From assembly GCA_051047955.1 (NCBI GenBank), contig JBPGPT010000004.1, forward strand, positions 62,001 through 126,000: a DNA stretch of 64,000 nt, read 5' to 3'. The notes under the pieces are model-generated. The model had not been told where the DNA came from. It saw nothing but the letters and a program-made list of their open reading frames with translations, and did no database searches. The stretch's first letter is position 1. Each line of letters starts with the position of its first letter. This DNA is from Cystobasidiomycetes sp. EMM_F5 (lineage: Eukaryota). Shown piece after piece: positions 16,934-23,405 of this stretch. The translations under genes and the position numbers were made by a program.

Positions 16934-17004
16934 TCAGTGACTTTGCAATACGATTCGTTTGATGCCGCCTGCAAGCTATCTACCAACGAGAAAAACTAAT
17001 GACA

Positions 17005-17104
17005 GACAAAGTGCGAAGAGGATGAAGAAATACGCTACGATGGCAAAACCTGACGACAATGTGCAAAGAGGCTGAAGAAGTACGCTATGACCTCAAAAGC
17101 TGCT
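17005..17104. repeat. Imperfect 2-copy tandem repeat, 50-bp period
   Basis: gacaaagtgcgaagaggatgaagaaatacgctacga... at 17005 vs gacaatgtgcaaagaggctgaagaagtacgctatga... at 17055. Confidence 0.8.
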
Positions 17105-17171: not shown

Positions 17172-17860
17172 CTAAAGGCGGACAGTGCGACCTCTGATGA
17201 ACCGCGGGTGATATACATGATTCTGTCGATGGCGTTGAGCTTGGATGGAGGCGATCATTTCGTGACCAACGTAAATGAAGACGATGATTGGGACCACGAC
17301 ACCAATCCCGAGGACAGTGGCAGTGCCATACAAGGCAGCCTTGCCGGTGACGACGGCAACCTTGCCGGCAGCCTTCTTTGGATTGCTTTTGGCGCGCAGT
17401 AGAGCATCCTTGATCCGTTCATGCATTGGGAGGAATTTGCGGAGATCTCGTTCGGCAATAATCATTTCGTCCCTCTGCCAGCCGTCGGAATCCTTCTCAA
17501 AAGTAATAAGTGTCCGCTCGTCACCAGCGTCCGTTCCTTTGCAGAAAAACTCCATGTGCATTTCACCGGGAATGACGGCGTGCAGGTGGTTGAGGGCGGC
17601 TATGAGCTCGTTGCTGTCGACATGGCGGAGCTGATGGACAATGTCGTCGTACGACAGACGTGCATATGGCGAGACCTCGACGAATGGGTTCTTTACGGTC
17701 TTGACTGCACATTCGCGTAATGTGGTGACGAGGTGTCGAGCTGCGCGAGGCAGTTCGTTCAGCGCTGCTTCAGTGCTGCAGAACAAACATAAGACATCAG
17801 TGTCTCGATCTCACGTGCTGAGATCTTTCTGACTGACCCTGGAGCAGCCTTGCTCTCCAT
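17172..17860 (-). CDS. Hypothetical protein, local paralog family A member 1 (208 aa, C-terminal TM segment)
   Basis: Exon1 17860-17838 (MESKAAPG), intron 17837-17776 (gtcagt..ctgat..tgcag), exon2 17775-17172; total 627 nt in frame; similar to genes at 18589 and 22501. Confidence 0.8.
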
Positions 17861-18588
17861 CTTGACGTTGGTAGATCGATGGACGTTGCAGATACTGAAT
17901 GCTAGAGCACAGCGACTGGAGCGCTCAGTTGAAAGTTAGGTGAGATCTGATAGAAGCAGAAGCAACAACGAAGATTGCGACGGCTCGCCATCAATTCAGT
18001 GCGAAGGCGGGCGCTCTCGAATGGCAAGCCGATACACGGGACCTGAAAGGAGGGCACGGAGTGCCGAAGGGATGACTCTACTTGCGCGGCAAGAATGGCC
18101 AGCTGAACTTCTTTGCAGCTTCCCCCTGCATCATTCTCAGACAACGGTAATGTAAGAATCGATATTGCATCCATTCAGCAGGCTAGGAGACGAGCCGGCT
18201 GGCTAGTGGTCTGCCAGGCACAAAGTCGCGGACAAGCTTATTGCGATATATAGGCCATGCTAGCAGATGTATGGTGAAACTTGAAGAGTAGAGCTCGTGA
18301 ACAACAATTGTAGATAAGCTAGCACTCAGATCAACAACAAACAAAGATGAAATTGGCAGGAAAGCCAGAATCCCATGTATCTAATTGCGAAGAACCCGTA
18401 CCATCATTGGTGACAGTCGTCCGTATGCAGAGTGAGGGAATACGGCTTCGCGTTGGCGTGCTGCGAGGCAGATGCATTCTCAGTCTCATGGACAATGTGG
18501 CGAAGCGGAAAGGAAGTAGATGTCGCAAGGGGTTCGAAGCCAAGGCTGAATACTAGGCGAAACTGCAACAAAGCCAGACCTGCGCACG

Positions 18589-19414
18589 TTATCGACGTCG
18601 TCTTGTGTTGTTCGGCTGTGACCACGTCGGAAGGAGGATGGACATCGGAACATGTCGATGCGGGTGCTCTCGAGAGTTGCTCATTTGATTGATATTGTGG
18701 ATGGAGTATCCGAACATCGCGATAAGTGGAGCGGCAAATACATAGCCTAAGCCTACCCTGAGACCGTCGCATGTTGCGGTTGTCACACGGCCGGCATGAC
18801 GGAAACCGCCGTTGAAGGCAGCTGCAAGCCACTTCATCGCGGGTGAGCAAGGATCCTTGAGGATGTACCAGTGGGGAAAGACATCGTCCGGGCCCGTTTT
18901 GCCAATGACTTTGCCACCGAATGCTGCAAAGAAAGCAATCCATTCCGATTCCGAGTGGTCGAGTCCCATTGCGCGTTCTCTTTCATGTCCGTCGGTGTCA
19001 GGACCGAAGCAAATATAAGCGATATATCCTCCTCCTTCCTGTGGCTCTGGTCCATTCGGACCCAGACGCGAATTGTGCGACAGTTCCATGTGGAGCCGGA
19101 CCTGGACCGCGCGCAGATGGGCCACTGCGTCTTTGACGGTTTGTCGATCTGCAGTATCGTATAGCTGCATTACTTTTTTGACTGACAGACGATGGTATGC
19201 ATGACCGGTCTTGTGAGCGCAGTCGGCTAGTTTGGTGAGGGGAGAGTATCGCAATGCTTCGACCAGCTCCTGTGCGGGCTGAGAAAGGGATTCGAGATGC
19301 GCCCGCTCTCTGCAAGAAGAGTGAGCTTGCTATGTTCTCGTGTCTGCGAGTCGCGTAAATAAAATGCTCTCGGACTTACCCCTTGACGGTTGATGGGTGT
19401 TTTGGGCGGCGCAT
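18589..19414 (-). CDS. Hypothetical protein, local paralog family A member 2 (251 aa)
   Basis: Exon1 19414-19380 (MRRPKHPSTVKG), intron 19379-19310 (gtaagt..ttgcag), exon2 19309-18589; 756 nt in frame; HLRAV..HME, FGPDTDGHERE, hydrophobic VGLGYVFAAPLIAMFGY. Confidence 0.8.
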
Positions 19415-19748
19415 GACGAAGATGCGGGGATGAGGTGTCTAGCTGTTAATGAGATTCGAGATGCGTGATGGATAGAGAGAGGTTATTGAACGTGTGAGCA
19501 GAAGGTAACCTGCAACAGCCCCTCTAATCGCAGATTCTGCAGGGCATTCATGCAAAAAGTAGGCAGGCACATCAGCGGCGGGTCAAAACATCTCTGACGT
19601 CCAGCCTGTCTGCGTTGGAAGTTTGATGCTTTTCAGCCTCCATTTCGACCACTGCCAGTGCTGACGCGCCCTCCAAACCTGGTGCTCTCGACGAATATCG
19701 ACATTTGAACCATCGTCCTGCGAGTTGTTTTAAAGACAGACGGTTGTC

Positions 19749-21061
19749 ATGTTTGGCTTCTTCAGCAGTCATGGTCCCAAGTATGTCACACCTGCACCTT
19801 CGCTCAAGGGCAAGACGGCTATCGTGACCGGTCAGTCGCGGTTCAGGTTGAGCTTGGATCAGTCTCGTCATCAAGCTGGAAAACAGCTGAGTCTGTTTAA
19901 ATGCAGGATCCAACGCCGGCATTGGCTACGGTATAGCGCTGTATCTGGTGAGTGCTGAGCATATGTGCCAGCAGATCATCAGGCTCATGCAGCGTCCATC
20001 GTCATCAGGCCTCGTTGGATAGTCGGGTCATCCTGGCTTGTCGTAATGCGCAGAAAGCCGAAGCTGCAAAAGAGAGCATATTGAAGGATCATCCACATGC
20101 TCAGGTAGAGGTTATGCAGCTGGATCTAGCATCGCTGGCCAGTGCGCATCGTTTCGCGGAAGAGTGGGCGAAGCAAGATCGCGCTCACACACCAGGCAAG
20201 TCGAAACATACAGCCATTCAGATGATTCGACCATGTCTAACCCTTCCTTACACAGTCGACCTTCTGTTTTGCAATGGTGGCGGAACATTCATTTCACTCG
20301 CTAAAACCGACGATGGTTTTGAAAACAGTTATCAAGTGCGTCTCAACAATAGACTCCCAGCTGCAGGGTGCTTGACGCTAATGTACATTACCTTCTCTTT
20401 GTCTAGATAAACTATCTCACCCACTTTCTGCTCCTTCGATTGCTGCTGCCGTTTCTGCGGATTGCGGAGACACCGCGAACCGTATTCACCAGTAGCAATG
20501 CTGCGTCATGGGGTAGAGTGGCTCTAGACAACCTCAACTGCGAAAGTATACCCGAATCTAGCTGGTCAGGCTTGGCGAGGCTTAAGACGGGCATGCAAGT
20601 TTACGGAAACAGCAAAGCGATGCAGATGCTCTGCGTAGTCTACCTGCAACGACTGCTGCAAGCCTCGTCAATAGCAGAAGATCACAAGATTGCCATTCAC
20701 GCAGTCTATCCAGGCGCTGTTGCATCCGATATGGCTAAGGCGGATCATCTCGGTGTTTCCAAGCTGATAGCCTTGCCAGCGCATTACGGAATGAAGGCCT
20801 TTGCCAGGTGTAAGTAGCTATATACATCGCTGAATACACGACAACGTTGATCGTTCTGCTTCAGCTATCCATACTGGTGCGATGCCATCACTTTGGGCCG
20901 GACTCAGTAACGAAGCCGGGCAGCGCGAGAATTACGGAAGCTACTGGGACGAGAACTGCGCCAAGCACGATTGGATAAATGATGGTTGCAAGGATGACGA
21001 TTTGATGCAGACTTTTTACGAGCGTAGCTGTAAGGATGCTGGAATTTCAACACAGCTGTAG
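19749..21061 (+). CDS. Short-chain dehydrogenase/reductase (retinol-DH-like), multi-exon
   Basis: KTAIVTG|SNAGIG (TGxxxGxG), VILACRN, QLDLASL, NYLTHFLL, VFTSS, YGNSK (YxxxK), HAVYPGAVAS; last exon ends ...GISTQL* at 21061. Confidence 0.92.
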
Positions 21062-21076
21062 GAACGCCTCGACGCC

Positions 21077-22158
21077 TTACTGTACACAACAATCTTTGCT
21101 GTCTTTCCCCGACTTGCCTCCTCTTGCTTCTATCGCCTGGAGCGTCGCATACCTGACCTTTTCGTCGTCCGTCAAGAGCCTACGGTAATGCGCCATCAGC
21201 GCTGTATCCTGACTGTGTTTCAAAACAACACAAACCCTTTATCCGCACGTCGCTTCAGCGCTGCGGCTGCACTCTCTCGCTCTTTGGCCGCCCGCTTAGA
21301 TGTCGTCCGCTCTTCTTTCATGCCCTTTATTGATGCTTCTAACCTGTTTTCGGTCGGTTCTTTCGCACGCGTTGGGCTCGTAGCTGTCACACGTAGAGTC
21401 TTGCTTTGATGTACCGGTGATGTGGGCGATGTTAATGCGCTTGAACTTCTTGTCGGATTCGAAGATGGTTTGATTGCAGTCTTGATTGACCTAAACACAT
21501 TTTGCGATGACGAAGGAGGAGACGAAGGTGTGTTACTGCTTGTTGAGGCAACTGTACCGCCCTGGGTAGCGTGTGGAACAGGACTGGGCGTACGACTCGG
21601 GAGCATGCTGCATCTATGCTGTTTCGGATCACGATGAGACGGGCAGTGCGAGATGTTGCACTTTTCACACGGTAGCGAGATCACCATCCGGATCTTGCAG
21701 GGTGGGTACGGACATGTTGTTGGGCTCTTTTGCGCTTTGAGCTTCTGGGCTTGTGCGGGACGAAGCAGGCCGTTCTGCTCGTTGACGATACTGCACTTGC
21801 CGCCGTCAATATGCGCAGTCATGGCATCGTTAACATCTACGCTGGTCTGGCCGTCGGCCTTCTTGAGCAAGTCGACAATGGGAAGGACTACCCCACACAA
21901 TGGGCACGTAGTTGCCCGGACGTCATCTCTGCTAAAGTCGTACTTTTCGCAAGCGTGTCCGTCTGGTGTGCGGTGAGAGGAGCAGTATGGCTTGTTGCAG
22001 TGTTGACAGCTGAATGGCAGCAGGTCGGCGACATTGCAGTAAGGGTATGCACAGTGCTGGCCGAAGGCTTCCAGGTGCGTTGGATGAGAGTAATCCGCGT
22101 TGTTATCATCCTTCAGCGTCAGCTTTGCCAGACTTGGTGTCAAAACAGATGTCGACAT
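21077..22158 (-). CDS. AN1-type zinc finger protein (Cuz1/ZFAND-like) with spliced C-terminal CaaX (CCVQ)
   Basis: GQHCAYPYCNVADLLPFSCQHCNKPYCSSHRTPDGHAC and CPYPPC..CEKCNISHCPSHR..HRC; intron 21235-21180 adds exon GLLTDDEKVRYA...KDSKDCCVQ*. Confidence 0.88.
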
Positions 22159-22500
22159 TCTTCAATGCTTGGCACGAAGGGGACAGCGCAAAGGAGACGT
22201 GACAGATGGACAGTAAGGGCAGGTTCAAGAGATCCAGAGTAATTGATGGAGGTGAGTGACTAATATGGCTGCACAGTCCGAGCTTGCGTGGATGCCTTGG
22301 AATCTTCGAGGTTGACAGGCGCTTACGAATACAGACTGCGCTCGACCATGCGGGTTCCGTATGTACTCATAACATGACATGCAGGTCGTGGTCTGCAATG
22401 TCAGAGTGAAAATCAAACAGCCAAGTCATCTTGGCCGCGAGAGGAGACCTGCCACTTCTAAACGACCCAACAACACCGTTCGAAAATGTGCGCACAAGGG

Positions 22501-23405
22501 TCAATTGACATGGACAACATGTATATTAGGGGAGAGACCAGCTATAAGAAATAGAAGGAGACGTCGTCCCAGACGAAGTGTCATCTGGCGAAACACATGG
22601 CGAGCTCGCAGTCCCATCCAGCGGGGCAGCTGGACTAAAGTCCCAATAGCGTTACGTCCCTCTGGAAGCCAGCTGCGGCTGAGGAGCCTACTGATGAGCC
22701 TGTAGAGGAACAGCTCCACATGGTGTAAAGGCAGAGTAGGCAGTCGGTTGTTGCGAACGTGGTTATCGCTCAGAGTGAGGCTGATATATACGAGAATAAC
22801 GATTGGAGCAATTGCAATGGTCCCAACGACGTTGAAGGGGATGACAATAGCCATCTTGGCGACCTTTGCGGCCTTTCGTCCTACTGTGCGCGCAGTCTGT
22901 ATCGGCTGATGACGGGCACGAAGTATTGCCAGCTTGATACGCTCAGATCTCGGAAGCGTAAGAGACTCGAAATGCTGCAGCGTGATGGCATTCTCTGTAC
23001 GCTGCCATCCGTCCGAGTCGGGACGGAAGCTGATGCGGACCCATATGACCGCGATGCTGTTGTGGCCGTTGCTAGTGGTGTAGGTGGCAGTGGGATACAT
23101 CGACCCGGGCGTCACGGCACGTATGTGTTCAGTTGCGCGTCGTGCAGCCCGCTGTTGAAGTGCATTGAAGCGGCAGCTTGGAGCAAACTCGACACTCGAA
23201 TACAGCTTCTTGTTGTCGACTTGTTTCCCGACGCGCGCAATCGCGGCGGTCCGGAGAAGCGCAACAAATGCTTGGGCAGCGGGGCATAGCGTCTCGAGAT
23301 GCTGTCTGGACCTGCCAAGGTGACGGATAATCAGTCTTTGGACCAAGCAGCACCAGCAGCAGCGGTATCTCTTTACCCTGGGACAGTCGACGGTTCCACA
23401 TCCAT
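22501..23405 (-). CDS. Hypothetical protein, local paralog family A member 3 (279 aa)
   Basis: Exon1 23405-23377 (MDVEPSTVPG), intron 23376-23312 (gtaaag..actgat..ggcag), exon2 23311-22501; 840 nt in frame; HIRAVTPGSM, FRPDSDGWQRTE, ERIKLAILRA, TM VIPFNVVGTIAIAPIVILVYISL. Confidence 0.8.

Follow-up and report, generated by a model that had tools for sequence, protein, structure and literature searches.

Tail-anchored membrane proteins, of which Pex26/Pex15, Fis1 and cytochrome b5 are examples, carry no signal peptide and consist of a soluble N-terminal domain followed by one membrane segment near the C-terminus and a short basic tail. Fungal orphan families form a second group of described systems: their members have no homolog outside one genome, are deposited as hypothetical proteins only and make up a small tandem or dispersed local family. 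Analysis of a 64-kb stretch of DNA (hereafter the window) from Cystobasidiomycetes sp. EMM_F5, a leaf-surface yeast, revealed three minus-strand genes, which we have designated g1, g2 and g3, that resemble both. On balance they probably represent an old family of local duplicates that, in the collections searched, was confined to this genome; the encoded proteins would be small, with a single membrane pass and an anchor near the C-terminus. The resemblance to tail-anchored proteins, which is seen in g1 and g2, is one of architectural class only, no member having been found that is similar in sequence or fold, and differs for g3, which has a tail of 91 aa in its current model. Unlike fungal orphan families, the three genes are not young: their synonymous sites are saturated and they share an intron, and the family predates much of the divergence within its lineage. 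It is new in that no database describes it, yet it is of a well-known kind.

Each gene has a tiny first exon that ends in GG, and a phase-2 intron interrupts the Gly codon concerned; the next codon corresponds to the first column of the protein alignment (Table 1). The recomputed coordinates agreed with those of an earlier analysis of the same DNA (the original prediction), which had described this organisation and had stated that all three spliced lengths are multiples of three; they are 627 nt (208 aa) for g1, 756 nt (251 aa) for g2 and 840 nt (279 aa) for g3. All of the motifs that it had quoted were also found, including PGxM and ERIKxAxLRA in g1 and g3, a central Pro in the hydrophobic segment and a His/Arg-rich tail. 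Reading by eye located a branch-point-like CTGAT or CTCAC between 12 nt and 25 nt ahead of each acceptor. The first in-frame Met of the exon-2 open reading frame (ORF) is situated 71 residues into exon 2 in g1 and 46 in g2. As both fall after the conserved N-terminal helix, these two genes need the spliced exon 1. Exon 1 of g2 and exon 1 of g3 have P-S-T-V before the split Gly in common, and three of the four codons differ only synonymously, which gives this stretch the look of a translated, selected peptide. The type of intron is not itself special, because the neighbouring AN1 zinc-finger gene carries the same kind: its 56-nt intron (21235-21180, minus strand) is also phase 2 in a Gly codon (GG/GT..AG/G; read by eye against the NCBI model). 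Phase-2 introns in Gly codons are frequent in the genome rather than a peculiarity of this family; the informative part is their identical position in the three genes.

Comparison of the exon-2 proteins by BLASTP gave E values of 4e-17 between g1 and g3 (33% identity over 119 aa), 1e-5 between g2 and g3 and 5e-4 between g1 and g2, with 24-33% identity between copies. A hidden Markov model (HMM) built from g1 and g3 only retrieved the g2 ORF from 1627 six-frame ORFs of the window with 26.5 bits (E 3e-7), the next best ORF scoring 4.2 bits. None of 2000 shuffled g2 sequences reached this score (best, 7.9 bits). Additionally, when all ORFs of at least 60 aa in the window were compared with one another by BLASTP, no non-overlapping pair other than g1 and g3 reached E<1e-3. 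These pairwise and profile comparisons agree with the paralogy that had been proposed and identify the genes as a true three-member paralogous family. Given this homology and the shared ancestral intron position, the copies originated by DNA-level duplication. No fourth or extra copy, pseudogene or relic was detected in the window.

Identity between the paralogs at codon positions 1, 2 and 3 was approximately 0.43, 0.54 and 0.28, respectively, and ranged from 0.24 to 0.31 at the third position. The proportion of synonymous differences (pS) was 0.68-0.83, which is saturated, and lay above the proportion of nonsynonymous differences (pN; 0.50-0.54). Jukes-Cantor correction of pS failed for two of the three pairs, and the ratio of nonsynonymous to synonymous substitution rates (dN/dS) is not estimable. 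Because synonymous sites are saturated, the duplications are old, as had been predicted, and the three copies have been kept as proteins. The accompanying suggestion that the family diversifies rapidly fared less well: with saturated dS and one genome, rapid diversification is not separable from plain old divergence.

A HMMER profile built from the three proteins was searched against 1,835,955,588 representative proteins. This revealed four matches at E<=0.001, all from these loci (the NCBI model of each gene and an unnamed ORF call), and no further annotated family member among these public proteins. Word-indexed searches likewise returned only the genes' own models, which made up 1 of the 296 candidates in one search and 3 of the 8000 scored candidates in another and are deposited as hypothetical proteins only. 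No Pfam family matched any of the three exon-2 proteins at E<=1, consistent with the absence of a recognisable domain noted in the original prediction. The ESM Atlas gave no usable match and no stored model for g1, whether the exon-2 or the full-length protein was the query. A scan of JGI metagenomes with the family alignment confirmed 0 of 268 pattern matches, and a second metagenome scan, anchored on the AN1 neighbour and directed at syntenic loci, confirmed 0 of 124. The family was thus confined to this genome in every collection searched, in line with the lineage specificity that had been proposed. AlphaFold modelling and fold searches, which had been suggested as a check, were carried out with two low-confidence models and identified no family; the models are too poor for these searches to count.

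The only match to a known structure was to the designed HEAT-like alphaRep 6ft5, obtained with the profile in PDB at E 8.3e-5, a value reached only by summing identical designed repeats. Its four repeats scored between 2.5 bits and 7.5 bits each, with independent E values from 32 to 1100. The proteins resemble the repeat consensus in a short D-x-D-G-W-x-R ... A-x-A-L stretch. They differ from it in that no Pfam family matched at E<=1 and in that the stretch before the motif appears beta-like in both AlphaFold models. The match is regarded as coincidental and due to the short motif D-x-D-G-W-x-R. Neither HMMER, Pfam, PDB nor the ESM Atlas yielded a match to a characterised family.

EMM_F5 has no sister taxon among 27 genomes of its class, is possibly the first sequenced genome of its family and belongs to a lineage represented by one genome only (PMC12697161). 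The orphan status of the genes is real, but it is to be expected in a lineage without a sequenced close relative. The same isolation bears on the alternative that g1, g2 and g3 are a very divergent branch of a characterised family, for example of a known organelle adaptor or tail-anchored protein, with homology masked by the isolated lineage and by a family of three sequences. The conserved AN1 neighbour, which was used as a control, had one outside relative among the matches listed by the word-indexed search, and this was only 47% identical. A profile of three sequences is also shallow, and the missing sister genome and the quality of the AlphaFold models point the same way. Set against this are the empty HMMER, Pfam and ESM Atlas results and a PDB match that consisted of a repeat-summed motif only. 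We regard a masked relationship of this kind as unlikely, although it survives best among the alternatives.

The order of parts is similar in the three proteins. An amphipathic N-terminal helix (LxxLxxxAxxxVxxLR) is followed by a variable stretch, a helix ending in H[LI][HR]AV and a beta-hairpin-like stretch ending in F..D[ST]DG[WH][QE]R. In g1 and g3, which also share PGxM, this is followed by the helix ERIKxAxLRA and a Lys/Arg-rich linker. Together these parts form an N-terminal domain of approximately 145-185 residues, after which come one hydrophobic segment and a basic His/Arg-rich tail. The tail is 31 aa (+5, with 4 His) in g1, 36 aa (+5, with 4 His) in g2 and 91 aa (+10) in g3. Gly, Pro and Tyr are invariant in the hydrophobic segment, which has the form Gly-x5-Pro-x5/6-Tyr in the three-protein alignment. 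The insertion in g2 relative to g1 and g3 sits ahead of this segment. A hidden intron that would remove the insertion was considered and rejected, as removal of the sole GT..AG candidate (47 nt; read by eye) would break the reading frame and abolish the conserved membrane segment.

Membrane segments were judged from a Kyte-Doolittle scan with a listing threshold of 1.2. With a 19-residue window, the segment peaked at 2.46 in g1, 1.67 in g2 and 2.43 in g3. The hydrophobic segment that had been described in all three proteins was strong in g1 and g3 and borderline in g2. No signal peptide was found: g1 and g2 have no N-terminal window above 1.2, and the exon-1 peptides are polar. The only N-terminal window above this threshold was at residues 7-27 of g3 (peak 1.42), which was taken to be the amphipathic helix. 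At its extreme C-terminus g3 has a second, weak hydrophobic stretch (1.53).

Table 1. Coordinates of the exons, introns and hydrophobic segments of the three genes within the window (GRAVY, grand average of hydropathy).
Feature	Position	Strand	Description
g1 exon 1	17838..17860	-	23 nt, ATG..GG, MESKAAP + 2 nt of Gly
g1 intron	17776..17837	-	62 nt, GTCAGT..CAG, phase 2
g1 exon 2 incl. stop codon	17172..17775	-	200 aa
g1 hydrophobic segment	17268..17339	-	exon-2 protein residues 146-169, GRAVY 2.18
g2 exon 1	19380..19414	-	35 nt, MRRPKHPSTVK + 2 nt of Gly
g2 intron	19310..19379	-	70 nt, GTAAGT..CAG, phase 2
g2 exon 2 incl. stop codon	18589..19309	-	239 aa, ~50-aa insertion vs g1/g3
g2 hydrophobic segment	18700..18756	-	exon-2 protein residues 185-203, GRAVY 1.67, borderline
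g3 exon 1	23377..23405	-	29 nt, MDVEPSTVP + 2 nt of Gly
g3 intron	23312..23376	-	65 nt, GTAAAG..CAG, phase 2
g3 exon 2 incl. stop codon	22501..23311	-	269 aa, 3′ end of model uncertain
g3 hydrophobic segment	22777..22851	-	exon-2 protein residues 154-178, GRAVY 2.34

How such proteins might work can be outlined from their architecture. They would be inserted post-translationally as tail-anchored proteins into the endoplasmic reticulum (ER) or, given the +5 tails, into the peroxisomal or mitochondrial outer membrane. The N-terminal domain would then face the cytosol, where it would probably serve in binding or as an adaptor while tethered to the membrane. The Gly-x5-Pro-x5/6-Tyr segment may pack against other helices, for example in oligomerisation, and so be more than a passive tether; its invariant residues suggest that it does more than anchor. 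As a joint proposal, namely tail-anchored organelle insertion, a cytosolic binding or adaptor domain and an anchor that packs against helices, this is tentative and falls a little short of an even chance. Tail anchors lie approximately 30-40 residues or less from the C-terminus, a distance that is seen in g1 (31) and g2 (36), whereas g3 (91 in its current model) lies outside it unless its tail is wrongly modelled. An extract of PMC5450235 gives, for mammalian tail-anchored proteins, a tail charge that averages 6.03 in peroxisomal, 1.12 in mitochondrial and 0.21 in ER members, and a GRAVY above 1.75 for the transmembrane domains of yeast ER tail-anchored proteins. By the figures of that extract, the +5 tails are in the range of peroxisomal or shared members.

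Several observations weigh against a C-terminally anchored family of this kind. Measured against the same excerpted values, the GRAVY of g1 and g3 (>1.75) points to the ER and the tail charge to peroxisomes; since these signals conflict, no organelle is named. The g2 segment is borderline, and g2 has further short hydrophobic stretches. The tail of g3 is too long for a classical tail anchor, and it includes a stretch without coding signal. The 20 residues before the segment are basic as well as the tail (+6 in g1, +2 in g2 and +5 in g3), and because both flanks are basic the positive-inside rule does not fix the orientation. The two AlphaFold models are of low confidence (mean predicted local distance difference test scores of 46.4 and 53.0) and disagree on residues 24-50. 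Finally, the deposited annotation of EMM_F5 is ab initio and was made without RNA data (PMC12697161).

The opposite, type III (N-out) topology would leave the basic tail in the cytosol and translocate the N-terminal domain, which would be lumenal or surface-exposed. Tails of +5, +5 and +10 fit the positive-inside rule in this orientation, and the long C-terminal extension of g3 would also be accommodated. The equally basic N-side flank of g1 and g3 and the lack of a signal peptide speak for the cytosolic orientation of the domain instead, and a domain of 145-185 residues would be large for signal-less type III translocation. The N-out arrangement is accordingly rated as improbable, and anchoring near the C-terminus with the N-terminal domain in the cytosol is the topology that we prefer.

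The original prediction had also noted that patterns of this kind are seen in allorecognition, defence or poison/antidote genes. A rapidly diversifying family of that type would be consistent with the orphan status, the local copies with 24-33% identity and the conserved membrane segment, all of which are circumstantial. The divergence is explained by age, with saturated synonymous sites and pN below pS, and there are no pseudogenised or extra copies in the window. No transposon-like repeats were found around the three genes, and their neighbours are housekeeping genes. As nothing found points to such a role, it is considered very unlikely. An equally slender chance is given to a more ambitious version of the anchored family, with a new fold and a functional membrane segment, in which the invariant Gly-x5-Pro-x5/6-Tyr and the His/Arg tail would allow the paralogs to form hetero-oligomers in an organelle membrane. 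Such oligomers might serve as an organelle tether or channel specific to the lineage, or might constitute a selfish killer/immunity set.

Codon-usage log-odds were calculated relative to a reference of 12 conserved ORFs of the window, which themselves scored between 0.04 and 0.29 bits/codon. In the annotated frame g1 scored 0.185, g2 0.135 and g3 0.056 bits/codon, and the five alternative frames scored below the annotated frame in each gene. That one or more of the genes is nonfunctional, as a decaying copy or a chance ORF, is the least credible alternative: the low score of g3 and of its tail (-0.019) would fit it, but the ORFs of 208-279 codons are intact, the protein is conserved while third positions are randomised, the intron and exon 1 are conserved, and g1 and g2 have the codon usage of host genes.

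The tail of g3 between 22504 and 22770 (approximately 89 codons) carries no codon-usage signal, in comparison with 0.094 bits/codon for the rest of the gene, and the 3′ end of g3 is for this reason uncertain. Two GT..AG candidates are present in the tail. Use of the first, 22691-22630 (62 nt), would change the reading frame and give a Ser/Thr/Pro-rich ending. The second, 22691-22635 (57 nt), is in frame; either could shorten or change the tail.

Alignment of our gene models with the deposited proteins showed g1 to be identical to KAL7009006 (208 aa). The deposited model of g2, KAL7009007, is 287 aa; its 5′ exon, at around 19600-19771, runs antisense to the beginning of an SDR-like gene, and the stretches concerned are 19572-19925 on the minus strand and 19734-19800 on the plus strand. 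The model also omits the conserved beginning of exon 2, splicing out a stretch, ERAHLESLSQ, that aligns with g3. Alignment with the paralogs favours the short-exon model of g2 over KAL7009007. In the third deposited model, KAL7009009 (492 aa; 21077-23405, minus strand), an intron of approximately 730 nt links g3 with the AN1 gene, a fusion that deletes most of the first AN1 finger. Its N-terminus is the same as that of our g3 exon-1 model. An unfused relative of the AN1 protein, 316 aa in length, aligned from residue 24 across both fingers with 47% identity. Because this relative covers both fingers, g3 and the AN1 gene are taken as two separate genes and the fusion very probably reflects an error of annotation. 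Paralog homology therefore leads us to regard two of the three deposited models, with respect to the 5′ exon of g2 and the g3-AN1 fusion, as probably wrong.

Correction of these two models is the immediate value of the analysis, and three genes at one locus would also offer a defined target for localisation and knockout when the strain becomes tractable. If the preferred interpretation is true, the locus adds one more lineage-restricted, C-terminally anchored family, from an isolated yeast lineage of which this is the first genome to be sequenced. The family opens no long-standing question.

Analysis of the 5′ flanks revealed a 24-nt near-copy (19442-19465) of the start of g2 exon 2 (19278-19301, encoding AHLESLSQ), located 164 nt upstream of it. 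Twenty of the 24 bases are equal, including an exact run of 13 nt. This near-copy could be due to chance, as roughly 0.4 exact 13-mers are expected in 6.9 kb, or could be the relic of a small duplication. An 8-mer, AGCAGAAG, was present with its complement in all three 5′ flanks and was rejected as not robust, since shuffled sequences gave a mean of 0.07 but a maximum of 6. The convergent gap between g1 and a DENR gene contains, at 17000-17102 in the 3′ flank of g1, a 50-nt unit that is present as two tandem copies (81% matching).

The three genes are interleaved with housekeeping genes, as had been described. The DENR gene, identified with Pfam, adjoins g1 just past its end. An SDR-like gene on the plus strand lies between g2 and g3, followed by the AN1 zinc-finger gene, which has two fingers (Pfam match 4.8e-17). 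The adh_short match of the SDR-like gene was below threshold (E 0.0026; 17.7 bits compared to a cut-off of 26.6). Of 152 ORFs with 110 aa or more, 125 were covered by Pfam analysis of the remaining window; the other 27 were in the region already examined or overlapped larger scanned ORFs. The domains found among these scanned ORFs were all of ordinary housekeeping types, and no mating-type, NLR/HET or transposon domains were seen. Pfam domains found across the window included PEPCK, M24 peptidase, THOC3, Trs120, SMI1/KNR4 and an APC3-type TPR protein, together with DENR, AN1, histidine and dual-specificity phosphatases, PP2C, dynamitin, Tcp11 and others. Several of the long ORFs located between 25182 and 28076, 31291 and 35800, 37537 and 41841, and 61011 and 63336 had no Pfam match at E<=1e-5. 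None of these was similar to g1, g2 or g3, and they may be further lineage-restricted genes.

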